This document shows positions 1,884-29,601 of a stretch of DNA of 64,000 bases, piece by piece; the first letter of the stretch is position 1, and each line of letters opens with the position of its first letter. The notes below the pieces were generated by a model, which was given only the letters and a program-made list of their open reading frames with translations, searched no databases and had not been told where the DNA came from. The stretch covers positions 142,501 through 206,500 of the forward strand of contig CAYXYK010000001.1 of NCBI GenBank assembly GCA_964469335.1, given 5' to 3'. The position numbers and the translations under genes were made by a program. Source of the stretch: an uncultured Candidatus Saccharibacteria bacterium (GTDB lineage Bacteria; Patescibacteriota; Minisyncoccia; Phycocordibacterales; UBA6899).

Positions 1884-3379
1884 AAGCCGTAATCGTTGCC
1901 AGAGTCTCTACAGAGGAGCAGAAAGAAGCGGGTAGCTCCCTGCCTGCGCAAATCGATCGCATGGAGTCTTATTGCAAGCGTAAGGGGTTTCCGATTATCC
2001 AGTCCTATAGCTTTGACGAGAGTGCGTACGGAACAAAGCGAGATGAGTTCGACAAGATATTGGAGCTGATCGGCAAGTCGAAAGAAAAGCTCGCAATCTG
2101 CTTCGACAAAGTAGACCGCCTCTCTCGAAATATCTTCGACAAGCGCGTACCCCTTCTCTATGAAAAGGCGGTCGCGGGGCAGATCGAGCTCCACTTCGTG
2201 TCAGACGGGCAGATACTCAACGAGTCGGTTTCTGCGGTCGAGAAGTTTCACTTTCAGATCAATCTTGGTCTCGCAAAATACTTCTCTGACGCCATCAGCG
2301 ACAACGTGAAGCGCGTAAACGAGCGCAAACGCAATACTGGGGAGCTCACAGGAAAAGCCCCTATCGGATACAAGAGTAGCAAAGTAGAGGGTAGTCCCCG
2401 AGAGGTCGCCCCCGATCCCCTGCGCGCACCCCTCATTGCACGCGCATTTGAGCTCTACGGGAGCACTAACTACTCAATACAGACACTCCACATACAAATG
2501 ATAAAAGAGGGTCTCGTAGGCATCAACGGCAAGCCAATAGCGCACAGTGTCTTTGCCCGTATCCTGTCGAACCCGTTCTATTACGGAGTCATGCAAAGTA
2601 AGGGCAAGGAATATCCGCATATCTACCAACCCCTCATTTCAGAGATGCTGTTCCGCCGATGCCAAGAGATCCTCAAGAGACGCGCCAAAGCCCCGACAAA
2701 GTACCTCTCAAAGCCCTTCGTCTTTCGTGGTCTGCTTACCTGTGAAAATTGCGGTTGTAGCTACACCCCAGAGCTCCACAAGGGTAGGTTTGTGTACTAC
2801 AGCTGTACCAATGCACGCAGGGTCTGCAAGAAGGTATATGTGAACGAGAAAGATCTTCTGAAGCCGATTTTAAGCGACCTGAGGGCATTAGGAAAGCTTA
2901 GGCAGAAGGACATCGACATGATCACAGTGGACGTGCGCAAACTGAACGAAACGAAGACCTTGTATCTCTCAAACGCAGTTGCGGGACTCCGAAAACAGCA
3001 CGACGATGCTCAGCATCGGATCGACAGACTCATGGATCTTTTTATTGATGCGAGTATTACAAAGGAGGACTATGACAAAAAGCATAAAGAGCTCAGAGAA
3101 AAACAGTATGATCTCGGTATGCAATTGGATGATCACACGAAGGCAGACGAGAACTACCATATTGCCGCTTCTACAGTGCTCAGCTTAGCGAAACGCGCCG
3201 CAGAGATTTTCGAAAGTTCTGAACCAGAGGAAAAGAACGTACTTTTGAATTATCTACTTCAGAACCCGACCGTAAACGGAAAAAACGTAAGCTATGCCTT
3301 ACGTTCTCCCTTCAATGCTATTCTCGAACTTGCTAATTGTCCCTCTGGGGGTGCCTACAGGGATTCGAACCCTGACTGA
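1880..3379 (+). CDS. Large serine recombinase (resolvase/invertase N-terminal domain plus recombinase and zinc-ribbon C-terminal)
   Basis: N-terminus MKAVIVARVSTEEQ with the catalytic Ser; CxxC...CxxC cluster (CENCGCSYT...YYSC); 499 aa; last 34 nt overlap the tRNA-His gene antisense. Confidence 0.8.
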   Translation: MKAVIVARVSTEEQKEAGSSLPAQIDRMESYCKRKGFPIIQSYSFDESAYGTKRDEFDKILELIGKSKEKLAICFDKVDRLSRNIFDKRVPLLYEKAVAGQIELHFVSDGQILNESVSAVEKFHFQINLGLAKYFSDAISDNVKRVNERKRNTGELTGKAPIGYKSSKVEGSPREVAPDPLRAPLIARAFELYGSTNYSIQTLHIQMIKEGLVGINGKPIAHSVFARILSNPFYYGVMQSKGKEYPHIYQPLISEMLFRRCQEILKRRAKAPTKYLSKPFVFRGLLTCENCGCSYTPELHKGRFVYYSCTNARRVCKKVYVNEKDLLKPILSDLRALGKLRQKDIDMITVDVRKLNETKTLYLSNAVAGLRKQHDDAQHRIDRLMDLFIDASITKEDYDKKHKELREKQYDLGMQLDDHTKADENYHIAASTVLSLAKRAAEIFESSEPEEKNVLLNYLLQNPTVNGKNVSYALRSPFNAILELANCPSGGAYRDSNPD

Positions 3380-5935: not shown

Positions 5936-6017
5936 GGGCGTGTGGCGGAATTGGTATACGCGTACGTCTCAGAAGCGTATCCCGTAAGGGTTGGGAGTTC
6001 GAGTCTCCCCACGCCCA
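5936..6017 (+). tRNA. tRNA-Leu (CAG)
   Basis: Manual fold parallel to E. coli tRNA-Leu: GGGCGTG acceptor, anticodon loop CTCAGAA, long variable arm, GGGAG-TTCGAGT-CTCCC, discriminator A. Confidence 0.85.
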
Positions 6018-6030
6018 CTTAGTTCAGAAT

Positions 6031-6169
6031 GGCGTACGTCTCAGAAGTGTGAGAAGCGAGTATGCGAGCTTCGCAAGACCTTTTGAGAGATTTTCTGAAA
6101 TCTCCAAAAGGTGAACAGCTCCTGTAGGGAGTCCCGTAAGGGTTGGGAGTTCGAGTCTCCCCATGCCCA
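6031..6169 (+). other. tRNA-Leu-like 3' portion (D-stem 3' strand to acceptor 3' end) carrying an 86-nt structured insertion after the anticodon loop
   Basis: GGCGTACGTCTCAGAAG then insertion 6048-6133, then CCCGTAAGGGTTGGGAGTTCGAGTCTCCCCATGCCCA; it lacks its own 5' acceptor strand. Confidence 0.4.
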
Positions 6170-6304
6170 CTCAGTTCAGAATAGTACACACAAAAAACTG
6201 ACTATGGTCAGTTTTTTGATTGATTGGAACATGGATGCATCATGCTGGGCTTCCTTGCTTCTCGTCACCCCTTTCGGTAGGGTGGGAGAAGATATTGGTC
6301 TCAA

Positions 6305-19080: not shown

Positions 19081-19152
19081 GTCCTCGTCGTTCAATGGAT
19101 AGGACAAGAGTTTGCGGAACTCTAAATATAGGTTCGATTCCTATCGAGGGCA
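19081..19152 (+). tRNA. tRNA-Arg (GCG), unusual anticodon
   Basis: Manual fold: GTCCTCG/CGAGGGC acceptor, GTTC-AATGGATA-GGAC, anticodon stem-loop AGAGT-TTGCGGA-ACTCT, ATAGG-TTCGATT-CCTAT. Confidence 0.6.
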
Positions 19153-20675
19153 CAAAAATTAACTTCTTCTGAAATCTGCCCCGCGCGCAAGCGCGCGGTA
19201 GTCAGGAGGGGGTGGGTGAAATCCGAATTCGTGTTGCATGCAATGGCGAATGCGGTGGGTGGGCTAAATGAGACGGTGACGGATTTATCACGCATGATCG
19301 GGTTCGTTCCGATTTTTTTGATATAGTCCCGAATTTCCAAAAAATTATCGGACGAACTCAATTCCGTGGCTTTTTTCATATCCAAAATCCACTCCCGCAA
19401 AGGTTCGACCCAATTCTTTCTCTCTGCTCGAGCGGATGCCATTTTGTGCGCGAGCGACACCTTTTGCCCAAGGAGGTCATTTTTCTTTTTTAAATATTGC
19501 TCCTTGGGGATATCTCCGTCGAGGTAGAGTCCCACGAGGGTGTCGAGTTTCTGCTGTGTCTCGCGCTCACTTCCCCGCATCCGCTCGAGCTGACTTCCCG
19601 ACGACACGGTTTCCTCTCGCTCCCACTCGTCCACCTGTTTCGACATGCTCACAATCCAGTCGTCGGGAAGTACGATGTTTTGGAGCTGTGCTTTTACCTG
19701 AGCAACGAGCACCGCCTCCCGCATGTACCCCTGCGCACATTTTCCGTTCTTTTTCGTGCACCGATAATACCGATACAGTCCACCATGTCCTTTTGCCCAC
19801 TGTGCGGTAATCATGCCCCCACACTCCCCACAACGAAAAAGTCCGGTGAATGGAAAATCGTGATGCTTTTTTGATTTCACGGGGCGTGCTCGTTTGCTCA
19901 ATCTTTTCTGCACAGCTTCAAATAAGTCGGGAGAAAGAATTGGCGGAAATGTGCCATCAAACCATTCTCCGTGATGCTTCACCAACCCCAAATATGCCCG
20001 ATTGGAAAGCATGCCGGAGATGGCACATTTCGAGAGTGGCGTTCCATTTCGCGTCACAATGCCATGATCCGCCAAAAATTGCGCCATTGATTCGTAGCAA
20101 TGTTTCCCTGTGGCGAATTCCTTAAACACGCGAACAAGCAGGCTAGATTTCACCACGTCAGGCTCAATATTTCGCGTTTTAGGGTTATTTATATATCCAA
20201 ACGGTGCTTTGGTCAGCCATTCGCCACGGCGCAGTTTCTGGCGGATTCCACGCTCCACATTCTGCTTTAAGTTGTCGGAATAGTACTTGGACTGTCCGAA
20301 CGCCACTTGCAACATAAAAAGACCTTGCGGGGTTGGTTCAAACCAAAATGTCGGGAAGCGCAAAGAAATGATCTTGGTCGTGTCTACGGCATAGATGATG
20401 CGCCCGCCATCAATACTATTGCGTGCGAGGCGATCAGGATGCCACGCGAGGATACCCACACCGTCCATCGACTCAATGCGGGACATCATCTCATTGAATT
20501 TCTCACGACCCGGTTTCTTTGCGCTTTTCGACTCTTGAAATTCTTCGAGAATTTCAAGATTTTCTTTATGTGCGAACTCACGAAGCTCAAACAACTGCGC
20601 CTCGATAGACATCACTTGCTTATCATCATCCTCCGTACTCTTTCGCGCATAAAGAAAATATTTTGATTTGCTCAT
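19122..20675 (-). CDS. Large serine recombinase
   Basis: N-terminal YARKSTEDD...SIEAQ resolvase domain with catalytic Ser; CGECGG...YYRC zinc ribbon. The 3' end runs through the left inverted repeat and 31 nt of tRNA-Arg antisense. Start trimmed to MSKSKYF. Confidence 0.8.
   Translation of the reverse strand: MSKSKYFLYARKSTEDDDKQVMSIEAQLFELREFAHKENLEILEEFQESKSAKKPGREKFNEMMSRIESMDGVGILAWHPDRLARNSIDGGRIIYAVDTTKIISLRFPTFWFEPTPQGLFMLQVAFGQSKYYSDNLKQNVERGIRQKLRRGEWLTKAPFGYINNPKTRNIEPDVVKSSLLVRVFKEFATGKHCYESMAQFLADHGIVTRNGTPLSKCAISGMLSNRAYLGLVKHHGEWFDGTFPPILSPDLFEAVQKRLSKRARPVKSKKHHDFPFTGLFRCGECGGMITAQWAKGHGGLYRYYRCTKKNGKCAQGYMREAVLVAQVKAQLQNIVLPDDWIVSMSKQVDEWEREETVSSGSQLERMRGSERETQQKLDTLVGLYLDGDIPKEQYLKKKNDLLGQKVSLAHKMASARAERKNWVEPLREWILDMKKATELSSSDNFLEIRDYIKKIGTNPIMRDKSVTVSFSPPTAFAIACNTNSDFTHPLLTTARLRAGQISEEVNFCALDRNRTYI
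19151..19258. repeat. Left copy of a perfect 108-bp inverted repeat flanking the serine recombinase gene
   Basis: Exact reverse complement of 20742-20849; begins at the last 2 nt of tRNA-Arg. Confidence 0.9.
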
Positions 20676-20741
20676 AGATTTGCTTTTGATATAAAAAAAT
20701 GAAAAGTCCGTTGTCGGCTCATTTCCTGCCTTTCTGCCCGT

Positions 20742-20849
20742 CCACCGCATTCGCCATTGCATGCAACACGAATTCGGATTTCACCCACCCCCTCCTGACT
20801 ACCGCGCGCTTGCGCGCGGGGCAGATTTCAGAAGAAGTTAATTTTTGTG
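20742..20849. repeat. Right copy of the perfect 108-bp inverted repeat
   Basis: Reverse complement of 19151-19258. Read on the plus strand it re-encodes the recombinase C-terminal peptide (ORF 20699-20893). Confidence 0.9.
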
Positions 20850-20981
20850 CTCTTTTGCCGTGGCTCGCTCGAACCTTTTTCGAAAATAAATAAGTAATCA
20901 ACAACCACTCAGGCACCCCCGCTCGCTTCGCTCGTCGCCCCACGGGCACTCCCTCTCTCGATTTTTTTCCGCCCCGCCATA
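20850..20981. repeat. 132-bp repeat (copy 1), inverted relative to 29259-29391
   Basis: About 90 percent identical to the reverse complement of 29259-29391. Confidence 0.85.
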
Positions 20982-21302: not shown

Positions 21303-22136
21303 TCATTCTTTCGACATCAACTCGCGCAGGCGACGATTCACATCGATCGGCTTACCGCTCTCCTTCATAAACGCATACATGCCGAGGATCATCTTTTGAA
21401 TATCGGAGTGGCGAATCTCGATCACCATCTTGTCATTGAGTGCGAGAAGGTACATCGCGTCCTTGAATGCGAATATCTGTGCCGAGTGTTCAAAGTATGA
21501 TTGAGGAAGATATACCGCGGATGATGATCTTCCCTCATAATCTTTTGCCCATGCGTCGCCCATAGCTCTGTAATGATTTTCAATCCAATTCTGTGAAGCG
21601 ACAAGCTCGCTAATGATTCCATTCTTCTTTACGATCCGGTTCCATTCATTGATCTCTTCTGGAGTGAATATCGAGAGCCATCCTTTCTCAAGAATATCCC
21701 CGAATGGGGTGTAACCAAGAAATCGCTCATCTTTTCGTGAGGTAATCATGTCAAAAATCACTTTTTTTACGGCAGCGGCTCCACGATGCACAGTCACCAC
21801 TCCATCTGTCACTCCGCCAACCTCCTCTTTACCATCGGAAAATGCCAGCAGTTTTTTCTTGAGTGCATAGAGTGTATCCGCAAGCTCTTTCTCGCTTGCG
21901 ATATGCCAACTCTTTTTTCCTCCAACAATACGCGACGCAGCAAGCCCACGCTTCTTGAGTTTGAGCAAAATCACATATACCGATGGACGGCTCACGCGTG
22001 TTTTTCGGGCGATATCAAGTACTGAGGCTCTCCCAGATTGGAGAGCAAGAAGGACTTTCTCTTCTTTTAACGACAGATCGAGCATCCTTAACTCTTCGCG
22101 TAGAGGCTCTCTTGTCTTGATTTTTGGGTTTTTCAC
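21303..22136 (-). CDS. TrmB-family transcriptional regulator (paralog of 7373-8128)
   Basis: wHTH LALQSGRASVLDIARKTRVSRPSVYVILLKLKKRGL plus TrmB-like C-terminal domain. Confidence 0.55.
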   Translation of the reverse strand: MKNPKIKTREPLREELRMLDLSLKEEKVLLALQSGRASVLDIARKTRVSRPSVYVILLKLKKRGLAASRIVGGKKSWHIASEKELADTLYALKKKLLAFSDGKEEVGGVTDGVVTVHRGAAAVKKVIFDMITSRKDERFLGYTPFGDILEKGWLSIFTPEEINEWNRIVKKNGIISELVASQNWIENHYRAMGDAWAKDYEGRSSSAVYLPQSYFEHSAQIFAFKDAMYLLALNDKMVIEIRHSDIQKMILGMYAFMKESGKPIDVNRRLRELMSKE

Positions 22137-22332
22137 CCCCTTAGTATAGCAAATTCTACAGTTTTGTAAAGTTTTTTTGACATTTTATGTGCTATTTTCA
22201 TCCTTTATTTACAACATACTTTGTGCATGAATGTTTGATACAACATATATTTTTACTGTCAATACATTTCCTGTTACGATGATACCAGAACGATAAGCAC
22301 AGTGCTTACCGAGAACCTTGAAGGAGACGATC

Positions 22333-22623
22333 ATGTACGAAGACAATCAGGTGCGCGAAATGATGGCGTCGATCCCCCAAGGGTTTGGGGTAGTCGCGGT
22401 ACAGTTCACCAACTGGGACGCGTACAGCGACTTCGAGCTGTACAAGGTTCCAGAAGGAACTGTACTGCCCGACGGCAAAGAGCTTTCTAGCGGCGAGTGT
22501 GCTCGGTATGAATATACCCACCACGCCCGCTACGAAAAGCTCTACTCGTTCTTTCAGGATTACAGGAACATGCTTGGGTGGACCAAGCTAGATTCCTTCA
22601 TCCTAGAGACGAGGTTTGCCTAA
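22333..22623 (+). CDS. Hypothetical protein
   Basis: RBS aaggag then ATG at 22333; followed by a ctggga-acgtga-tcccag hairpin. Confidence 0.4.
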   Translation: MYEDNQVREMMASIPQGFGVVAVQFTNWDAYSDFELYKVPEGTVLPDGKELSSGECARYEYTHHARYEKLYSFFQDYRNMLGWTKLDSFILETRFA

Positions 22624-22687
22624 GGAGCCCTGGGAACGTGATCCCAGTCAATAACTCACCGTCACGCAGGAGGACGTCACTCTCCTG

Positions 22688-22745
22688 CACTTTATCAAGT
22701 TTCTGAAGTGACTCAGAAACTTGTAGAGTAAGTTCTTTGAGAAAT
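22688..22745 (+). repeat. Composite hairpin motif copy a (CTTTATCAAGTT-hairpin-AACTTGTAGAG..AGTTCTTTGA)
   Basis: ctttatcaaGTTTCTGAagtgacTCAGAAACttgtagagtaagttctttgagaaa. Confidence 0.8.
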
Positions 22746-22750
22746 GTTCC

Positions 22751-22859
22751 ATCTAAGTTTTAGGATCGTGCGAGTGATGCATCGCTCGCAGCATCCTAAA
22801 ACTTAGGCTCCCCACGTGAACGGCCCGTATTGGGTACGACGTAGGGGTGAGGAGCAATC
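22751..22859 (+). promoter_or_regulatory. Structured 110-nt leader (54-nt palindrome, then ggggtgaggag RBS) upstream of ORF 22860
   Basis: About 95 percent identical to 24158-24265; palindrome ctaagttttaggatcgtgcgagtgatgcatcgctcgcagcatcctaaaacttag. Confidence 0.6.
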
Positions 22860-23294
22860 ATGAGCAACGCAACTGAAATCATGGGCCTGCTGCATTCCTA
22901 CTACAATAAGGAGACAGCGAAGGTCAGCAGTGGTGAGGTGGATCCAAGGAATCACTTCATCAGCTGCAGAATGGACAAGGTCATTCTTCTGGGTGTGTCA
23001 TCACCAATCCCTAAGGGATGGAAGAAGGCCGGGCCTCGGCAGCTGATTTGGCTGGCTAGCCATTCTCAGTACATGCCGGTGGAGTGGAGAGGGTATGAGC
23101 TTTTGTTCGACGAGGTGGTCTTCCATGACACCGAAGCGGATAAAGACTGCATGCCTAACTCACCTCCGTCACTCTGGGTGCCGACATTGTCGTATAACAA
23201 TGGAAGCATACCCGGCTGGAACAACAAAAGGATCTTCCTTAGTTGTCGGCCGGAGACACATCCCAACATGCTTAGGTTGTGTGTGCCAGAGTAG
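22860..23294 (+). CDS. Hypothetical cassette protein A (144 aa)
   Basis: Preceded by the structured leader; no recognisable domain. Confidence 0.5.
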   Translation: MSNATEIMGLLHSYYNKETAKVSSGEVDPRNHFISCRMDKVILLGVSSPIPKGWKKAGPRQLIWLASHSQYMPVEWRGYELLFDEVVFHDTEADKDCMPNSPPSLWVPTLSYNNGSIPGWNNKRIFLSCRPETHPNMLRLCVPE

Positions 23295-23496
23295 GTGTCC
23301 AACCGCAGCGCTAGCTGACTGCGGTATAAAAATAAACTAGTAGTGGCCAACTCGAGGGCCTGCACAACGTGTGATGCTCTGTAGAAAGAGCGTGGCACGA
23401 GGTGAGTCGCTTCCATACGGCATGGAAAGAAGCGGCAAGCGCTATGACTGGTAGATATGCGCGAACTACCCACCCGCCCGAGCGTGATCGGTGCAT

Positions 23497-23585
23497 GGGG
23501 AATCGGTTGATCGTCATGTGACGATTGATTCCCCTCTTTATCGGGCTCATCACACAGATATGGTGGGTCAGTAGAGACAAGTTCT
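23497..23585 (+). repeat. Composite hairpin motif copy b (degenerate), with hairpin A GGGGAATCGGTTGATCGTCATGTGACGATTGATTCCCC
   Basis: tctttatc-gggctcatcacac...gtgggtc-agtagag-acaagttctttgaa. Confidence 0.6.
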
Positions 23586-23638
23586 TTGAATCAATCGCGA
23601 AATTCTTCGCACTGCACCTCGGGTACTGGGGTAAGGAG

Positions 23639-23797
23639 ATGAGCATGTGGAAATGGGCTGTCATCGCCCTCTGCGGCTTCCAAGCCGTGTGGGCAGCTCA
23701 CTATGTTGTCGAGAATAATGGTTGGTCGATCTTCGCGGTCGCAGCCATCATCATCGACATCCTTGTACTGCTTGCAGTCACAAAGGAGAACAGGTGA
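23639..23797 (+). CDS. Small single/double-TM peptide (52 aa)
   Basis: RBS aaggag; MSMWKWAVIALCGFQAVWAAHYVVENNGWSIFAVAAIIIDILVLLAVTKENR. Confidence 0.35.
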   Translation: MSMWKWAVIALCGFQAVWAAHYVVENNGWSIFAVAAIIIDILVLLAVTKENR

Positions 23798-23825
23798 GTA
23801 CACCCGGCCGGGAGGCCCGAGTATT

Positions 23826-23935
23826 GCGCGCTTGGGAACAGAAGTCGCATTGGGGGAAATTCATTTCCCCACTTTATCAAGTTCATCACATGGGTTGTGA
23901 ACTTGTAGAGTGCAGTTCTTTGAAAACGGCCTGTC
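23826..23935 (+). repeat. Composite hairpin motif copy c, with upstream box CGCTTGGGAACAGAAGTCGCATT and hairpin A GGGGGAAATTCATTTCCCC
   Basis: ctttatcaagttcatcacatgggttgtgaacttgtagagtgcagttctttgaaaa. Confidence 0.8.
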
Positions 23936-24070
23936 TGATGCCTTGTTGCACCGACTCCCAGGAGCGCTGCAGCAAAAATCAAATGGCTGATCACCATTTG
24001 ATGCTGACTATCGGTACTTGAACAAAACGCCGAGACGCCCGCAGATAAGGAAAGTATATCTGTGGGAGCG

Positions 24071-24150
24071 GAGGAAGCCTGCAACTTCCTCCTCTTTATC
24101 AAGTGCATCACATTGGGTGGTGCGCTTGTAGAGAAAGTTCTTTGAGAATA
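24071..24150 (+). repeat. Composite hairpin motif copy d, with hairpin A GGAGGAAGCCTGCAACTTCCTCC
   Basis: tctttatcaagtgcatcacattgggtggtgcgcttgtagagaaagttctttgagaata. Confidence 0.8.
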
Positions 24151-24157
24151 TCTCCAT

Positions 24158-24265
24158 TCTAAGTTTTAGGATCGTGCGAGTGATGCATCGCTCGCAGCAT
24201 CCTAAAACTTAGGCTCCCCACGTGCACGGCCCGCATTGGGTACGGCGTAGGGGTGAGGAGATAAC
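24158..24265 (+). promoter_or_regulatory. Structured 110-nt leader (second copy) upstream of ORF 24266
   Basis: Near-identical to 22751-22859, including the RBS. Confidence 0.6.
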
Positions 24266-24697
24266 ATGTCCAAGATCTATGTTTCACACTTTCATGGTTT
24301 CAACGACCTGGAGGCCACCAAGATGGCTGTGTCAGGCATTGAAGCAGAAAGTGAAAAGGAACTCCGACTGAAGCTTAGGGGTCGCCTCCTCGCCAACCTT
24401 GACAGCATTGTCGAAGAGTTGATGGAGAAGACCTTCAGCCTTCAGTATGTGACCCCGTTGGGTCAAAGGGTTTATCCCGAGGTGTACGAGATGATGCAAA
24501 GCCTGCCCAAGGGGTATACGCTCATCGAGTACACCTACCAGGTGAGGCCTGGGTGCATCGACTATCGAACGATGTACTACCAGGCCCCTGAAGGGATCGA
24601 GGTCGATGGCAAGACCTTGAGGGAAAGCGAGTTCTATCGGGCCGGAGGTTACTACGGAAGTAATCCTCCATGGGCCGTGAACTGCACCCGACTCTGA
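24266..24697 (+). CDS. Hypothetical cassette protein B (143 aa; unrelated in sequence to protein A)
   Basis: Same leader as 22860; the 3' flank 24698-24960 is homologous to 23295-23555. Confidence 0.5.
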   Translation: MSKIYVSHFHGFNDLEATKMAVSGIEAESEKELRLKLRGRLLANLDSIVEELMEKTFSLQYVTPLGQRVYPEVYEMMQSLPKGYTLIEYTYQVRPGCIDYRTMYYQAPEGIEVDGKTLRESEFYRAGGYYGSNPPWAVNCTRL

Positions 24698-24898
24698 CGG
24701 AGTAACCGCAGAGCTTGTTCGAACGACTGCGGTATAGAAATGAACAAGTAGTGGTCAACTCGAGGACCTGCACATTGCATGTCGCCCGTAGAACGGCAGA
24801 TGCACAAGGTGAGACCGTGGATACAGCTAAAACCATGGACAAACGCTTTACTGGTAGATACGCGTGAACTACTCGTCTGCCAGTACGTGAACTGTGCG

Positions 24899-24998
24899 CG
24901 GGGAATCGGTTGATCGTCATGTGACGATTGATTCCCCTCTTTATCAAGTTTCTGAAGAAATTCGGAAGCTTGTAGAGATGAGTTCATTGAATCAGTGT
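24899..24998 (+). repeat. Composite hairpin motif copy e, with hairpin A GGGAATCGGTTGATCGTCATGTGACGATTGATTCCCC
   Basis: tctttatcaagtttctgaagaaattcggaagcttgtagagatgagttcattgaatcag. Confidence 0.8.
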
Positions 24999-25099
24999 GA
25001 TGAAGTGAAGCGATGCCAGGAAGGCCTGTGGGGCATGTCTTTCAAACGAAAGCATGAACACATTCCTGCCATCACTCCACTTCATCACCGGAGATAACT

Positions 25100-25345
25100 A
25101 TGCAAAAGCTGATCATTGTTTGTGCGCTGTTTGTGCTGTCGGGCTGCGATATCGTCTACAGCGATCGCGCCGGCTTTGCGCACGGCTACCGCGACGGGCA
25201 AGGAGTCGCCTTGGGTCATGGAACATGCCAGACATTTCCAAACCCACGGAAGTCGATCATCCCGATCGAGCGACCGGCAAGTTACGCAAATGCATATCGG
25301 GAGGGATATGCGGTGGGCTGCCGAGCCATGCTCCGACATGAGTAA
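25100..25345 (+). CDS. Small lipoprotein (81 aa)
   Basis: Signal peptide and lipobox LSGC; preceded by a long imperfect hairpin leader 25003-25095. Confidence 0.5.
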   Translation: MQKLIIVCALFVLSGCDIVYSDRAGFAHGYRDGQGVALGHGTCQTFPNPRKSIIPIERPASYANAYREGYAVGCRAMLRHE

Positions 25346-25357
25346 GACTCCGAGCCC

Positions 25358-25478
25358 GCGACGCTTGGGAACAGAAGTCGCATTCGCAGAACATTTTGTT
25401 CTGCACTTTATCAAGTTCACGAAATGGCCTGCCTGTCGGCAGACAGGTTCGTGAACTTGTAGAGCAAACTCTTTCAAT
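25358..25478 (+). repeat. Composite hairpin motif copy f, with upstream box CGCTTGGGAACAGAAGTCGCATT and hairpin A GCAGAACATTTTGTTCTGC
   Basis: ctttatcaagttcacgaaatggcctgcctgtcggcagacaggttcgtgaacttgtagagcaaactctttcaatcaaggag. Confidence 0.8.
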
Positions 25479-25491
25479 CAAGGAGAAGACC

Positions 25492-25635
25492 ATGTGGTAT
25501 GTATTCTGTTTTGTGATCGGTTTCGCGTTTGGCGCACTGCTTGTGATCGAGATCAAGCTTGAGCTTGCGGGTTACCAGCCGCCGGAGGGCTACCCACGCA
25601 TTCCGCTTGACCGTGGTCCATACGTGCGACTGTGA
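25492..25635 (+). CDS. Small TM peptide (47 aa)
   Basis: RBS aaggag; MWYVFCFVIGFAFGALLVIEIK... Confidence 0.35.
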   Translation: MWYVFCFVIGFAFGALLVIEIKLELAGYQPPEGYPRIPLDRGPYVRL

Positions 25636-25669
25636 GTGTTCGGTTGAAAATTAACGAAAGGAGATCGTC

Positions 25670-25837
25670 ATGAAGAAAGTCGGGAAGACCCTCGCTCCGC
25701 GCCTGCCGGAGATCGCGAGGAAGAAGCTCACGCAGGGCGGTACGCACAATAACAAGAAGGCGTACAAGAGGAAGGAAAAGCATCACAGCCGAGAGACCTC
25801 TCGGCTGTATTTTTTAGTGATACAATTCATCAGATGA
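25670..25837 (+). CDS. Small highly basic protein (55 aa, K/R-rich)
   Basis: RBS aaggagatcgtc-ATG; MKKVGKTLAPRLPEIARKKLTQGGTHNNKKAYKRKEKHH...; an internal terminator-like hairpin near the 3' end makes the true stop uncertain. Confidence 0.3.
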   Translation: MKKVGKTLAPRLPEIARKKLTQGGTHNNKKAYKRKEKHHSRETSRLYFLVIQFIR

Positions 25838-26472
25838 GCACAGCGATAGAAATTGCAAGTGATATACATACGCTGACATCGAATTGGTCAAAAGGTCAGC
25901 ACAAGCTCGTTATGGCCCTCGATGGGTATACCGGTGTCGGGAAGACAACGATACTGAACGAACTATTGAAACTCAATCCTGACATCCTTCCTGTGCATGT
26001 GGACGACTTCATTTTGCCGCCGGCAGAATTCAAGGAAATTCTCGCGGAGAACTCCGACCGTTCGATTGCATTTGAACTGCATCGCAATGACTATGCGAGG
26101 ATTGAAGAATTGGTGAATAGGTTTCGCACACAAGATGACCCCGTCGAGGTGCTCGTTGCAAATCCAGTGACCGGAGCGATCGATGTTCCCAAAACCTTCG
26201 ACTGTTCGAAGAAGATTATGGTCGTCGAGGGGGTGTTCATGTTTCACCCGAAGTTACTGAACCACCTTTGGGACAAGCGCATATATCTTGATGGAGATAC
26301 TACGAAAATTGACGAGCGACGAATTGCTCGCGAAAAAGCACGTTGGGGTGATAAATATTTTCCCGAAACCCATCCAGATTCATTCTTTGGACAGGTGGTC
26401 ATTGCACTCAAGCGATATCGCGAAGAATATAAACCAGAAGAATTAGCGGATGCAGTATTATTCGTGAATTAA
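25834..26472 (+). CDS. P-loop nucleoside kinase, uridine kinase / PRK family-like
   Basis: Walker A GYTGVGKTT; RIYLDGDTTKIDERRIARE resembles the udk motif IFVDTDADVRLARRI. Confidence 0.55.
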   Translation: MSTAIEIASDIHTLTSNWSKGQHKLVMALDGYTGVGKTTILNELLKLNPDILPVHVDDFILPPAEFKEILAENSDRSIAFELHRNDYARIEELVNRFRTQDDPVEVLVANPVTGAIDVPKTFDCSKKIMVVEGVFMFHPKLLNHLWDKRIYLDGDTTKIDERRIAREKARWGDKYFPETHPDSFFGQVVIALKRYREEYKPEELADAVLFVN

Positions 26473-28579: not shown

Positions 28580-28654
28580 CTCACACTCAGTCCTTCGATC
28601 ACTGCATGTCAGCTCTCGCACAGCATATTCGCCGTACCAATCACGTGGATTCCT

Positions 28655-29000
28655 CCGGCCTCGGGCATTTCCGCTAGGGCGCCCATGATAACCGGATGAG
28701 CGCCGCCGCGAACGGAGGCACCCATGTTCGTAGCGAAAGCGACAAGAGGAACTCGGTAATGAAAACTCGGGTGGGGGGTTGTGCGGGTGGCGGTCCTCCG
28801 CCTCCACGCGGGGGGGAGGGTCCGCCCATCCCCCCAAACAGAGGCGGGCGTGACTCGCCGATTCAGAGTCTTCAAAGTCGAACGGCTCAATTGGTGGGAA
28901 ATGAGCCGTTCAGAGTAAACCAACGGCTCACTCGGCGAGGCAACCGCCCGTTCACTGACATCTAGGCGCGAGTAGCCCTAGCGGAAATGCCCGAAGCCGG
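28655..29000. other. GC-rich 346-bp non-coding element bounded by 26-bp terminal inverted repeats (MITE-like element or structured ncRNA; class unresolved)
   Basis: TIRs CCGGCCTCGGGCATTTCCGCTAGGGC / GCCCTAGCGGAAATGCCCGAAGCCGG; GC content far above the flanks; only nonsense ORFs; internal AACGGCTCA repeats. Confidence 0.35.
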
Positions 29001-29258
29001 ATGGCTGAGGGTGCACTGAAACTCCAACTACCTCTCACTCCAATCGCCGCACCGAAGTCGGAGGGCGATCACGGGAGTCTGTACGGAGAGAGAAGTGAAG
29101 AACGGATACTGCGCGCAAGGAGGAAGCACCCCCGGCTGGCGCATCAGCAGGAAACGAGCAAGCCCGAACAACCACAATGCTCTCGATCTACACATGCTCG
29201 TTTCCTGATGAATGCGACAGTTGCCCCACGGTCATCTTCTTCCTTACTGCAATTTTCT

Positions 29259-29391
29259 TATGGCGGGGCGGAAAAAAATCGAGAGCCGGAGATGCCGTGG
29301 GGAGACGAGCGAAGCGAGCGGGGGTGCCTGAGTGGTTGTTGATTACTTATTTATTTTCGAAAAAGGTTCGAGCGAGCCACGGCAAAAGAGC
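29259..29391. repeat. 132-bp repeat (copy 2), inverted relative to 20850-20981
   Basis: Followed by the palindrome caccaaaagaaaaaacggc-atta-gccgttttttcttttggtg (29392-29436). Confidence 0.85.
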
Positions 29392-29601
29392 ACCAAAAGA
29401 AAAAACGGCTAATGCCGTTTTTTCTTTTGGTGCCCTCGAGAAGTTACCTGCGCGCATTACGGATAAGAATCGAAAGGGTTTTCATTGTCGCGTCTTTGAG
29501 AGTGAAGACAACCTGCGGCGGTTGCCGAGATTCCTGCCACAAAATAGCATCCCTTTTTCTTCCCATAGTCCCCTTCACCCGCTATACTGGATGTAATTCA
29601 T

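Follow-up and report, generated by a model that had tools for sequence, protein, structure and literature searches.

Results

Organization of the array

The window, that is the whole 64-kb stretch of DNA that was analysed, comes from an ultra-small (Patescibacteria) bacterium and holds a series of small genes separated by copies of a non-coding element (Table 1). The AlphaFold model of the divergently encoded TrmB-family regulator (pLDDT 86.6) matched TrmBL2 and TrmB over its full length with an E value of 1e-10. In a related locus, L171, the orthologous promoter region contains a strong promoter, TTGACA-17 nt-TATGAT, and window positions 22279-22327 show 90% homology to L171. At the junctions there was no recurrent sigma-70-like promoter and there were no conserved promoter hexamers. 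The terminator-type site at the end of the array is the only one on the + strand between 20.8 and 26.6 kb with a long uninterrupted U run; the same scan also listed hairpin A of copy 4 and a short stem at 23689. Less than half of the array is coding and the remainder is stable RNA structure. Such arrays look like single operons. The six copies are all in sense with the genes.

Table 1. Features of the array and its surroundings (positions are those of the window).
Feature	Position	Strand	Basis or score
TrmB-family regulator (winged HTH, coiled coil, PLD-like C-terminal domain), divergent from array	21303..22136	-	Pfam TrmB
A+T-rich divergent promoter region and leader of first array gene; putative array transcript start	22140..22333	+	sequence reading
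First array gene, ~96 aa, without motif upstream	22334..22623	+	ORF list; SD GGAG, ATG 22334
Copy 1: hairpin A 22666-22688, hairpin B 22690-22728, tail GTTCTTTGA 22732-22740	22666..22740	+	57.3 bits
Structured 5' UTR module: 54-nt hairpin 22753-22806, then stem-loop pairing with SD region	22741..22859	+	covariation, 7 sequences
Cassette ORF144, orphan	22860..23294	+	
Structured 3' module, ~195 nt, conserved, after ORF144	23300..23496	+	covariation
Copy 2: hairpin A 23497-23534, hairpin B 23536-23576, tail 23581-23589	23497..23589	+	51.0 bits
Small membrane peptide, 50-52 aa	23639..23797	+	
Copy 3: upstream box 23829-23851, hairpin A 23853-23870, hairpin B 23872-23910, tail 23915-23923	23829..23923	+	62.1 bits
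Stretch between copies 3 and 4, a non-coding 'cassette' that has two small hairpins and lacks a credible ORF	23925..24069	+	
Copy 4: hairpin A 24070-24092, hairpin B 24094-24133, tail 24137-24145	24070..24145	+	63.5 bits
Cassette ORF143, near-orphan	24266..24697	+	
Copy 5: hairpin A 24900-24937, hairpin B 24939-24977, tail GTTCATTGA 24982-24990	24900..24990	+	61.3 bits
Lipoprotein-like gene, 81 aa; orthologue in L171	25100..25345	+	
Copy 6: box 25362-25384, hairpin A 25386-25404, hairpin B 25406-25464, degenerate tail ACTCTTTCA 25468-25476	25362..25476	+	48.8 bits
Membrane peptide, 47 aa; orthologue in L171	25492..25635	+	
Small basic protein, last in arrays of window, L158, L161/L126 and L171	25670..25837	+	
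Intrinsic-terminator-type site: 10-bp stem, then ATTTTTT	25785..25816	+	terminator scan

A family search with the first array gene gave no match. ORF144 was without a match in Pfam, PHROG, PADLOC and NCBIfam, and a search of 5.8 billion proteins returned one homologous cluster. ORF143 had 7 matches among 1.84 billion representatives; its C-terminal part is similar to the first array gene and to ORF130 of L171. Copies 1 and 4 are part of a larger repeat, in which the 5' UTR module (second instance at 24146-24265) and the 3' module that follows ORF144 and ORF143 are shared. The 3' module, which had no match in Rfam, recurs at 24704-24900 in the window, twice in L145, and in L153, L164 and L171. 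Every copy of the element had been described as lying directly 5' of a short gene; what follows copy 3 is instead a stretch of about 145 nt that contains no credible ORF.

Six copies of a two-hairpin element

A covariance model of hairpin B and the tail, built from 34 family members, was employed to search the window. It gave exactly six matches, all on the + strand within 22666-25476, with starts at 22690, 23536, 23872, 24094, 24939 and 25406, scores of 48.8-63.5 bits and E values from 1e-12 to 4e-9. The next-best match reached 17 bits. The six composite copies within 3 kb that the sequence-only reading had reported were thus recovered. Each consists of two abutting hairpins, with folding z-scores between -2.9 and -6.0: a variable, G+C-rich hairpin A is followed by hairpin B and, 3-5 nt later, by the tail. 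The element belongs to a family found in Patescibacteria/Paceibacteria genomes and groundwater metagenomes. A search of Rfam with this family gave no match, in agreement with the earlier statement that the motif was not recognised as any described element; it is a previously undescribed folded-RNA element.

The conserved blocks are less uniform than had been proposed. The sequence CTTTATCAAG occurs exactly five times in the window, always in the array, and copy 2 has CTTTATCGGG in its place. Copy 2 reads CGGG...TCAG where the other copies read CAAG...CTTG, which leaves one mispair in the stem; at the same positions in related loci, compensatory exchanges (CAGA/TCTG and CGAG/TTCG) were found. 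Nor is the tail invariant, since copies 5 and 6 depart from it (Table 1), and copies 2 and 4 deviate from the AAGTT opening and AACTT closing once ascribed to every hairpin B. The box CGCTTGGGAACAGAAGTCGCATT was found in two copies, as claimed (copies 3 and 6). Copies 2 and 5 have an identical hairpin A, and hairpin B of copy 6 has an extended apex.

Structure and covariation of hairpins A and B

Hairpin B has about 17 bp, a fixed length and a conserved base, CUUUAuCAAG/CUUGUAGAG, that includes a bulged U; it also has a conserved U-G (Y-G) and, higher in the stem, an invariant A-U pair. The base sequence and both of these pairs are kept across classes of Paceibacteria. The flanks CTTTA and TAGAG, earlier taken to be single-stranded, appear to be the two strands of this base. 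The five basal pairs almost never vary; the evidence that they pair comes from complementarity and from a handful of variants, and some variants (L168, L171) break the pairing.

Hairpin B showed strong covariation. Paired cells amounted to 98.1%, vs. 82% in shuffled and 31-50% in slid alignments, and nine pairs had compensatory changes (93 cells vs. 27 expected). Furthermore, the fold is specific to the coding strand, with -17.0 vs. -10.0 kcal/mol and 141 vs. 28 G-U pairs on the coding and opposite strands, respectively. The proposal of selection on a folded single strand is borne out by these values. Hairpin A is strand-symmetric and averages 9.7 bp; it is distinct in 53 of the 58 unique copies, and CUUUAU follows within 0-2 nt in 55 of them.

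A boxA-like tail

The tail has the consensus GTTCTTTSAAAA. Written as GUUCUUU(G/C/A)AAAA, it departs at only one of 11 positions (10 of 11 agree) from GYTCTTTAANA, the boxA consensus in the literature (PMC5725501), from which the lineage's own rrn boxA may differ. Position 8 of the tail is mostly G or C. At an offset of 3-5 nt the tail was present in 42 of the 58 unique copies, against a background of 3.7%. It is not obligatory: in one genome (L122/L125) none of the four copies has it, and some others lack it too. In L164 the last copy has no tail either, and a canonical terminator stands after it, indicating that hairpins A and B belong to the upstream unit and the tail to the downstream one, and that hairpin A is not the efficient terminator.

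Hammerhead ribozymes and the neighbouring regulator in related arrays

Infernal identified at least five type III hammerhead ribozymes at the same junction position in related arrays, with scores of 49.9 bits (L126/L161), 44.7 (L126), 46.0 (L156), 44.1 (L151) and 40.9 (L171). Three more were recognised by the core pattern only, and the number at these junctions is probably eight. Each hammerhead has GTTCTTT within 1-9 nt on its 3' side, and hammerheads alternate with A/B copies within the same arrays. In L171 a hammerhead and tail precede the same 5' UTR module that follows copies 1 and 4 of the window. The window itself has an A/B hairpin pair at every junction and no hammerhead.

The TrmB-family gene is the sole protein gene that consistently adjoins such arrays, in many loci 0.5-2.3 kb upstream of the first copy. 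Five homologue loci were retrieved by TrmB alone; four (L164, L166, L168 and L173) have the motif within 2.3 kb upstream and one (L172) has none. The array of L171, which was retrieved through the small basic protein, also adjoins a TrmB gene. Additionally, the motif was found inside an ordinary ABC-transporter operon.

Gene exchange between related arrays

A comparison of related strains had been proposed, and they differ in gene content, with breakpoints at the motif. The ORFs are exchanged precisely from ATG to stop within conserved structured UTRs. Homology ends at two different conserved blocks rather than at one crossover point. Moreover, hairpin A, the apex of hairpin B and the downstream UTR assort as three independent modules, suggesting crossovers at two or more blocks, as for homologous exchange. 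We read the repeated conserved blocks as doubling as recombination breakpoints.

Discussion

From the anatomy of the arrays we infer co-transcription, cleavage and antitermination. With moderate confidence, the motif is taken to be intercistronic RNA punctuation within one operon, in which an element that stabilises the 3' end or acts as a leaky stop is combined with a hairpin for processing and an antitermination box of the Nus type. Among the possibilities raised by the sequence-only reading, a terminator/antiterminator or riboregulator family comes closest. Transcription would start at the promoter shared divergently with the TrmB-family gene, and RNA polymerase would transcribe the entire array. 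After each cistron, hairpin A with CUUUAU would serve as a protective 3' stem or weak stop for the upstream unit. Hairpin B would be the recognition and cleavage site of a host double-strand-specific RNase, of which RNase III is our best guess, and cleavage would split the polycistronic RNA into units, as type III hammerheads do unaided at the equivalent junctions. The single-stranded tail, as a boxA-type element, would load NusB/NusE and thereby carry the polymerase through the next hairpins and the extended untranslated region, in the manner of rRNA operons and CRISPR arrays. That the transcript is cut is suggested because related genomes often hold self-cleaving hammerheads at the same position; this equivalence could also be compatible with an A/B pair that stabilises without being cleaved and merely shares the junction.

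The possibility was considered that the A/B pair is a 3'-end module that is not cleaved and that acts within operons as REP/BIME elements do, either as a weak terminator in tandem or as a barrier to exonucleases. Each unit would then be expressed from its own unrecognised promoter or by read-through, and the hammerheads would be unrelated neighbours. A G+C-rich, strand-symmetric hairpin A next to CUUUAU, the terminator-like score of one copy, the U-rich stretch 3' of hairpin B and the A/B pair that closes the last unit of L164, with no gene beyond, are consistent with such a module. However, the canonical terminator after that same copy indicates that A/B is insufficient for termination, and a barrier needs neither the conserved base and fixed length of hairpin B nor its invariant A-U and Y-G pairs. 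The junctions have no conserved promoter hexamers, and the tail shared with hammerheads is left unexplained. This explanation is rather unlikely. REPs occur genome-wide in both orientations, are mobilised by RAYTs, and as REP/BIME elements in operons can stabilise upstream mRNA. The present element shares with them the intergenic palindromes inside operons and the potential to stabilise but, unlike them, is local, oriented, composite and bound to one regulator family.

Earlier ribozyme classes were discovered as conserved motifs near hammerheads, and the A/B pair could in principle be a new self-cleaving ribozyme or a hammerhead-derived variant, with parts in the type III order of hairpin, conserved strand, hairpin, conserved strand. 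In line with this reading are its alternation with hammerheads at the corresponding junctions, the 3' tail common to both, the near invariance of its CUUUAU and UAGAG blocks, which show no covariation, and the lack of an Rfam family for it. However, the conserved strands are complementary at five of five positions and a G-to-A variant keeps the pair, suggesting a plain helix rather than a catalytic core. Hardly any conserved nucleotide is unpaired, G5, G8, G12 and GAAA of the hammerhead core are missing, and a closing third stem was sought in the flanks and not found. We regard a ribozyme as improbable.

The conserved blocks form an imperfect inverted repeat, and the constant TrmB neighbour (beside the motif in four of five TrmB-retrieved loci and in L171) is in line with the suggestion that they are DNA operators of the TrmB-family or XRE regulator, through which the array would be silenced as by the chromatin-like repressor TrmBL2. 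XRE does not recur. The half-sites are a variable 20-50 bp apart and lie between genes, far from the promoter, and a covarying stem with G-U pairs on one strand is meaningless for double-stranded DNA. The association with TrmB stands, but an operator role is very unlikely.

An integron-like cassette system, with the motif as an attC-like recombination site of folded single-stranded DNA, was also considered. Points of likeness are one-orientation, promoterless arrays of diverse, mostly orphan genes, strain-specific content with breakpoints at the motif, a hairpin with conserved base, extrahelical base and variable top, and a large serine recombinase 2 kb away. However, this recombinase does not recur in other loci. 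When intI was sought by tblastn with two Patescibacteria Xer/integrase queries, no tyrosine recombinase was found in the window (E>5), and the only ones in related loci are Xer-type (integron-integrase model 128.9, cut-off 265). The R''/R' core sites (RYYYAAC...GTTRRRY) are absent from both strands of the region. Furthermore, it is the coding strand that folds, each junction has several breakpoints as homologous exchange predicts, ORF swaps run from ATG to stop in conserved UTRs rather than at the motif, and the motif also occurs in the ABC-transporter operon. The integron proposal is thus highly improbable. Least probable of all is a selfish REP/MITE-like repeat with no host role: the element is palindromic, intergenic and repeated, but within the 64 kb it occurs in a single 3-kb operon only and always in sense, its position with respect to SD sites, hammerheads and tail is fixed, it is kept beside one regulator family across distant Paceibacteria, and it lacks terminal inverted repeats, target duplications and a RAYT or transposase.

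RNA punctuation has several partial precedents. In phage T7, related RNase III hairpins lie at each early-gene junction, and cleavage leaves a protective 3' hairpin on the upstream message. The array likewise has sequence-related hairpins at each junction of one polycistronic RNA, but here two hairpins abut, one of them separate and variable, and cleavage is putative. PeSL (promoter-early stem-loop) cassettes of T4-type phages reportedly place a promoter and stem-loop between small variable ORFs that are shuffled by recombination. The present element is similarly a short repeated stem-loop expression signal and a substrate for modular shuffling; unlike PeSL, it has no recognisable promoter and would act on the RNA strand. 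For clustered hammerheads that flank variable prophage genes, a role in dividing long transcripts into mRNAs of gene length has been proposed (Perreault et al. 2011, PMC3088659). Common to both systems are structured RNAs between co-oriented, mostly hypothetical, non-constant genes, the proposed cutting and, in related arrays, type III hammerheads at the same junctions. However, the A/B pair that occupies all junctions of the window has no catalytic core, a boxA-like tail is common to both kinds of junction, and the operon is chromosomal, TrmB-linked and from Patescibacteria, with no recognisable prophage.

The tail resembles the NusB-NusE site of boxA, nut and rrn signals (GYUCUUUAANA, 10 of 11; PMC5725501, PMC7665894) in being single-stranded, in lying just 3' of a hairpin as in boxB-boxA of rrn leaders, and in being repeated along a largely untranslated transcript. 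Unlike boxA, it precedes almost every cistron rather than occurring once or twice per operon, and differs at position 8. BoxA shields untranslated RNA, for example that of CRISPR arrays, against Rho (PMC7665894). Most likely, the element marks the points at which cutting and stabilisation of a long transcript take place and its elongation is sustained, and not the insertion of DNA cassettes. As a by-product, homologous recombination between the short conserved blocks, which are repeated at every junction, would duplicate, delete and reshuffle the units.

The two-hairpin element and its fold

Seven short genes lie on the + strand between 22.3 and 25.8 kb of the window, and six copies of one composite element were found between them. 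A covariance model of the family, built on 34 of its members, matched the 64-kb window at exactly these six places (48.8-63.5 bits, E 1e-12 to 4e-9), the best score after them being 17 bits. Every copy folded as two abutting hairpins with an energy 2.9-6.0 sd under that of shuffled sequence. Hairpin A is G+C-rich and its sequence differs in nearly all copies. Hairpin B begins 0-2 nt further on and has a variable upper stem; at its base, which includes a bulged U and a U-G pair, CUUUA-u-CAAG pairs with CUUG-UAGAG. The tail, GTTCTTTGA, stands 3-5 A/U-rich nt past hairpin B and is degenerate in copies 5 and 6. The sequence-only reading had taken the conserved blocks for invariant single-stranded flanks; they are really the two strands of the hairpin B base, and some of the blocks vary. 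Nor does a gene directly follow every copy, as had been stated, since copy 3 precedes non-coding sequence instead.

Features of the window and of three related loci (L-numbers are related loci fetched for comparison; all other positions are in the window)
Feature	Position	Strand	Length	Identity of repeats
51-nt direct repeat	5980-6030 / 6132-6182		51 nt	96%
tRNA-Leu	5936-6018			
tRNA-Arg	19081-19153			
Large serine recombinase gene	19122-20762	-		
Inverted repeat pair around the recombinase gene	19147-19264 / 20736-20853		118 nt	97%
Inverted repeat pair around the array block	20842-20981 / 29259-29398		140 nt	95%
TrmB-family gene	21303-22136			
First gene of the array	22334-22623	+		
Six copies of the element	22666-25476	+		
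5' UTR module	22753-22859, 24159-24265			
3' module	23300-23496, 24704-24900		~195 nt	
Non-coding segment after copy 3	23925-24069		~145 nt	
Small Lys/Arg-rich protein	25670-25837			
Site with a long uninterrupted U run	25785-25816	+		
G+C-rich region	28596-29332			
Non-coding segment, L171	about 1990-2430		~450 nt	
SGSxGRGKPLR ORF, L173	9150-9255	-	~30 aa	
SGSxGRGKPLR ORF, L168	7815-7910	-	~30 aa	

Hairpin B was tested for covariation over 17 pairs in an alignment of 34 distinct copies. The cells were paired in 98.1% of cases, a share that fell to 82% on shuffling and to 31-50% on sliding the partner, and compensatory double changes at nine pairs amounted to 93 cells where 27 were expected. 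The basal five pairs are nearly unvarying in this alignment, and their pairing is proposed from complementarity and from a small number of variants; higher in the stem, one A-U and one Y-G pair are also conserved. The coding strand folded to -17.0 kcal/mol compared with -10.0 kcal/mol for the complement and formed 141 G-U pairs compared with 28. Hairpin A, unlike this coding-strand-biased fold, shows strand symmetry. Among 58 unique copies it took 53 different sequences (mean 9.7 bp), and in 55 of them it ended 0-2 nt ahead of CUUUAU. Covariation together with strand bias marks the element as an RNA transcribed in the same direction as the genes. The earlier proposal of selection on a folded single strand was borne out by the pairing and the compensatory changes.

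Distribution of the element

When 185,579 genomes were scanned with a loose pattern, most matches were due to chance: about 130 were expected in 596 Gb by our own arithmetic and at least 120 were returned, the real ones being those in Patescibacteria only. The true copies were in Paceibacteria-type MAGs (Kaiserbacteria, Yonathbacteria, Lloydbacteria and 'Paceibacterota'). A stricter pattern matched 18 metagenome contigs, mostly from groundwater, and no viral contig in IMG/VR; GenBank phages contained no DNA match of the region. Among the related loci, the model matched 93 times across 37 loci. The window itself encodes a type IV pilus PilM, a T4SS pilin and Pol I, and its closest DNA relatives are Paceibacteria MAGs, which indicates that it comes from a Patescibacteria-like genome.

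Rfam 15 returned only tRNAs at the gathering score and no family for the motif, and at E<=10 the interval 22200-25900 gave only chance-level miRNA and lncRNA matches. No description of the motif was found in the literature on hammerheads or cassettes in Patescibacteria. The view that it is unlike any described element therefore stands, and the motif is a real, undescribed and conserved RNA element with a demonstrated anatomy, distribution and covariation.

Exchange of genes between conserved UTRs

Within the window, three modules are combined independently of one another: hairpin A, the apex of hairpin B and the downstream UTR. Hairpin A matches at 100% between copies 2 and 5, the hairpin B apex at about 75% between copies 1 and 5 and between copies 3 and 4, and the downstream UTR at 93% between copies 1 and 4. 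When the window was compared with the syntenic locus L145, homology of 84% ran across TrmB, the first gene, motif copy 1 and the 5' UTR, ended at the ATG of ORF144 and picked up again (89%) 6 nt past its stop codon; L145 has unrelated ORFs of 173 and 119 aa inside the same UTR frames. Gene content does vary between related loci. The module assortment, the homology breaks and the unrelated ORFs indicate that the repeats serve as breakpoints for homologous exchange, and that the ORFs occupy standard structured UTR 'slots'. No family is common to the 40 distinct ORFs downstream of motif copies. The ORFs of the window cassettes, the units between motif copies, had no match in Pfam, PHROGs, PADLOC or NCBIfam, and the two tested by homologue searches are near-orphans.

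Covariation was seen in both UTR modules that flank ORF144 and ORF143. The 3' module, which is also present twice in L145 and in L153, L164 and L171, follows unrelated ORFs; compensatory changes back several of its stems, and it has no Rfam family. Its place is held by long non-coding stretches or hammerheads in some related cassettes. The 5' UTR module consists of a near-perfect 54-nt hairpin followed by a stem-loop that joins CUCCCC to GGGG of the GGGGUGAGGAG Shine-Dalgarno region, a pairing that suggests translational control. The module is kept with covariation in L145, L146, L149, L166 and L171.

The non-coding segments in the window and in L171 have punctuation elements on both sides and could be excised as small RNAs. 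In two distant loci, L173 and L168, an ORF with the peptide SGSxGRGKPLR ends ~10-20 nt ahead of hairpin A of a motif copy and may be a leader peptide. The small Lys/Arg-rich protein (MKKVGKTLAPRLPE...GGTHNNKKAYKRKEK) had no family match; it closes the arrays in the window, L158, L161/L126 and L171, and its frame spans a terminator-like hairpin and overlaps the ATG of the next gene.

A boxA-like tail common to the element and to hammerheads

GTTCTTT with at most one mismatch was found 3-5 nt past hairpin B in 42 of the 58 unique copies, against a background of 3.7%, and the weight matrix of the tail reads GTTCTTT[C/G/A]AAAA. In one genome, none of the four copies had a tail. The Gram-positive rrn boxA is GTTCTTTGAAAA. 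The tail matches the boxA consensus, GYTCTTTAANA (PMC5725501), in a predicted single-stranded context. Neither the window nor any of the fetched loci contained an rRNA gene. Where RNA is untranslated, as in rRNA and CRISPR arrays, boxA/Nus complexes shield it from Rho (PMC7665894), and a boxA ahead of each long structured untranslated stretch would make sense.

Type III hammerhead ribozymes were identified in related arrays, five by Infernal (40.9-49.9 bits, E 4e-8 to 2e-6) and three further by core sequence alone, giving eight distinct hammerheads in Patescibacteria arrays (L126/L161, L147/L162, L151, L156, L162, L163 and L170/L171). Most scored 40.9-46 bits, under the Rfam gathering threshold, or were visible by core pattern alone. 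GTTCTTT occurs 1-9 nt past every hammerhead, and hammerheads and A/B copies alternate along the same arrays. The L171 array is orthologous to that of the window, and the first-gene leader, 5' UTR module, 3' module, lipoprotein, membrane peptide and basic protein aligned at 74-91%. In L171, a hammerhead and tail stand directly ahead of the 5' UTR module that follows window copies 1 and 4. This comparison indicates that a junction can be filled either by the A/B hairpins or by a self-cleaving ribozyme, the tail being common to both. Clustered hammerheads flanking variable prophage genes were proposed to cut long transcripts into gene-length RNAs (Perreault et al., PMC3088659).

The TrmB-family neighbour and transcription of the array

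The array starts in a divergent A+T-rich region that it has in common with the TrmB-family gene, and the TrmB family was the sole protein recurring with the motif across loci. Five loci were fetched by the TrmB protein alone. The motif was present in four of them (L164, L166, L168 and L173), where it lay 0.6-2.3 kb upstream of that gene with no further match in the 20 kb, and absent from L172, all matches in the five thus being at most 2.3 kb upstream of the TrmB gene. L171, fetched via the small basic protein, also has the TrmB-then-array layout, and in L173 the motif is within an ordinary ABC-transporter operon. The AlphaFold model of the window protein (pLDDT 86.6) matched TrmBL2 and TrmB over its full length. 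A role as a nuclease or recombinase was considered from its PLD-like C-terminal fold, but the whole protein matches these regulators, and there is no invariant histidine, hence no HKD motif. Paceibacteria genomes (L172; ENA contig of P0061) carry 3-5 paralogous TrmB-family regulators within 20 kb, each adjoining a divergent operon, which suggests that such proteins have a major role in local regulation in these reduced genomes.

No recurrent sigma-70-like promoter was found in the junctions. Reading TTGTAG as -35 and TAGAGN as -10 was rejected, as no partner hexamer is conserved, position 6 of the putative -10 is variable, and the SD would fall upstream of the predicted start in several copies. 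The U-run site listed in the table is the sole + strand site of its kind in 20.8-26.6 kb, and L171 has TTGACA-17-TATGAT right ahead of its first array gene. Taken together, the junctions, the U run and the L171 promoter point to the array being one transcript. The coding share of 22624-25669 is under half.

Alternative explanations

The A/B element might conceivably be a new ribozyme, as its layout mimics that of a type III hammerhead. However, its two conserved strands are simply complementary, and it has no conserved unpaired nucleotides of catalytic-core type. The type III core is CUGANGA ... GAAA, whereas the conserved strands of the window motif are CUUUAU and UAGAG; the motif had no RF00008 match at E<=10, and true hammerheads occur in the related arrays only. 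On inspection, the flanks showed no consistent complementarity from which a third stem could join A and B in a hammerhead-like junction, nor any for an alternative pairing of the tail with the 5' strand.

As for intrinsic termination, hairpin A is G+C-rich but is followed by CUUUAUC instead of a U run, and one of the six copies passed a terminator scan. In L164 the last A/B pair is tailless and then comes a canonical terminator, which implies that the A/B pair is part of the unit upstream and the tail part of the unit downstream, and that hairpin A is not an efficient terminator. That the copies are operators is opposed by the strand-specific G-U pairing and the variable spacing.

The sequence-only reading had also likened the array to integron cassettes with attC-like sites, and this was not upheld. 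A tblastn search with two Patescibacteria Xer/integrase queries found no tyrosine recombinase in the 64-kb window (E>5), the recombinase near the array being a large serine recombinase; the tyrosine recombinase tested from related loci is Xer-type, scoring 128.9 with the integron-integrase model TIGR02249, whose cut-off is 265. No R'' (RYYYAAC) / R' (GTTRRRY) pairs within 30-130 nt were found on either strand of 22600-25700. Moreover, it is the wrong strand that folds, and the breakpoints are several per junction rather than one crossover point: the modules assort independently, and L145 homology ends at the ATG and resumes past the stop. A dispersed REP/MITE-like repeat was dismissed for the window and the five TrmB-fetched loci. 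The six window copies occupy a single strand within 3 kb of the 64 kb, and the motif is local, has one orientation and keeps to one context.

Other features of the window

The 140-nt inverted repeats enclose an 8.3-kb block containing XRE, TrmB, the array, and kinase-like, nucleotidyltransferase, NUDIX and wHTH proteins. The 118-nt pair encloses the serine recombinase gene, which abuts tRNA-Arg. The right arm of one pair adjoins the left arm of the other, and the bounded region could be an invertible or mobile segment. The G+C-rich region has no credible ORFs, an internal inverted copy of GCCCTAGCGGAAATGCCCGARGCCGGA, 83-89% identity in L145 and ~73% in Kaiserbacteria loci; it had no Rfam match at E<=1 and is a candidate large non-coding RNA. 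The direct repeat takes in the 3' end of tRNA-Leu, the kind of duplication that integration into a tRNA gene leaves.

Interpretation

The motif is most likely an intercistronic punctuation that combines a stabiliser, a processing hairpin and a boxA-like antitermination box, and most likely promotes modular gene shuffling as a side effect. Cleavage, Nus binding and co-transcription of the array are inferred. The motif is a second, undescribed structured element at hammerhead junctions, with the same downstream box. One operon with six junctions, together with orthologous arrays that have ribozymes in place of the motif, offers a testable system. If the tail is a boxA, Nus-type antitermination would reach the gene arrays of the Candidate Phyla Radiation. 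The start-to-stop swap of unrelated orphan ORFs in folded UTR 'slots' is an unusual gene-content variation, and the slots would be a natural counterpart of the synthetic ribozyme insulators of genetic circuit design. There is an outside chance that A/B represents a new RNA-cleaving class, as a hammerhead-like small ribozyme or the target of an unknown endonuclease, within a modular 'insulator' system. If so, hammerheads, A/B and the boxA-like tail would be natural modules, and Patescibacteria would plug arbitrary ORFs or non-coding RNAs into the UTR slots of one TrmB-controlled transcript.
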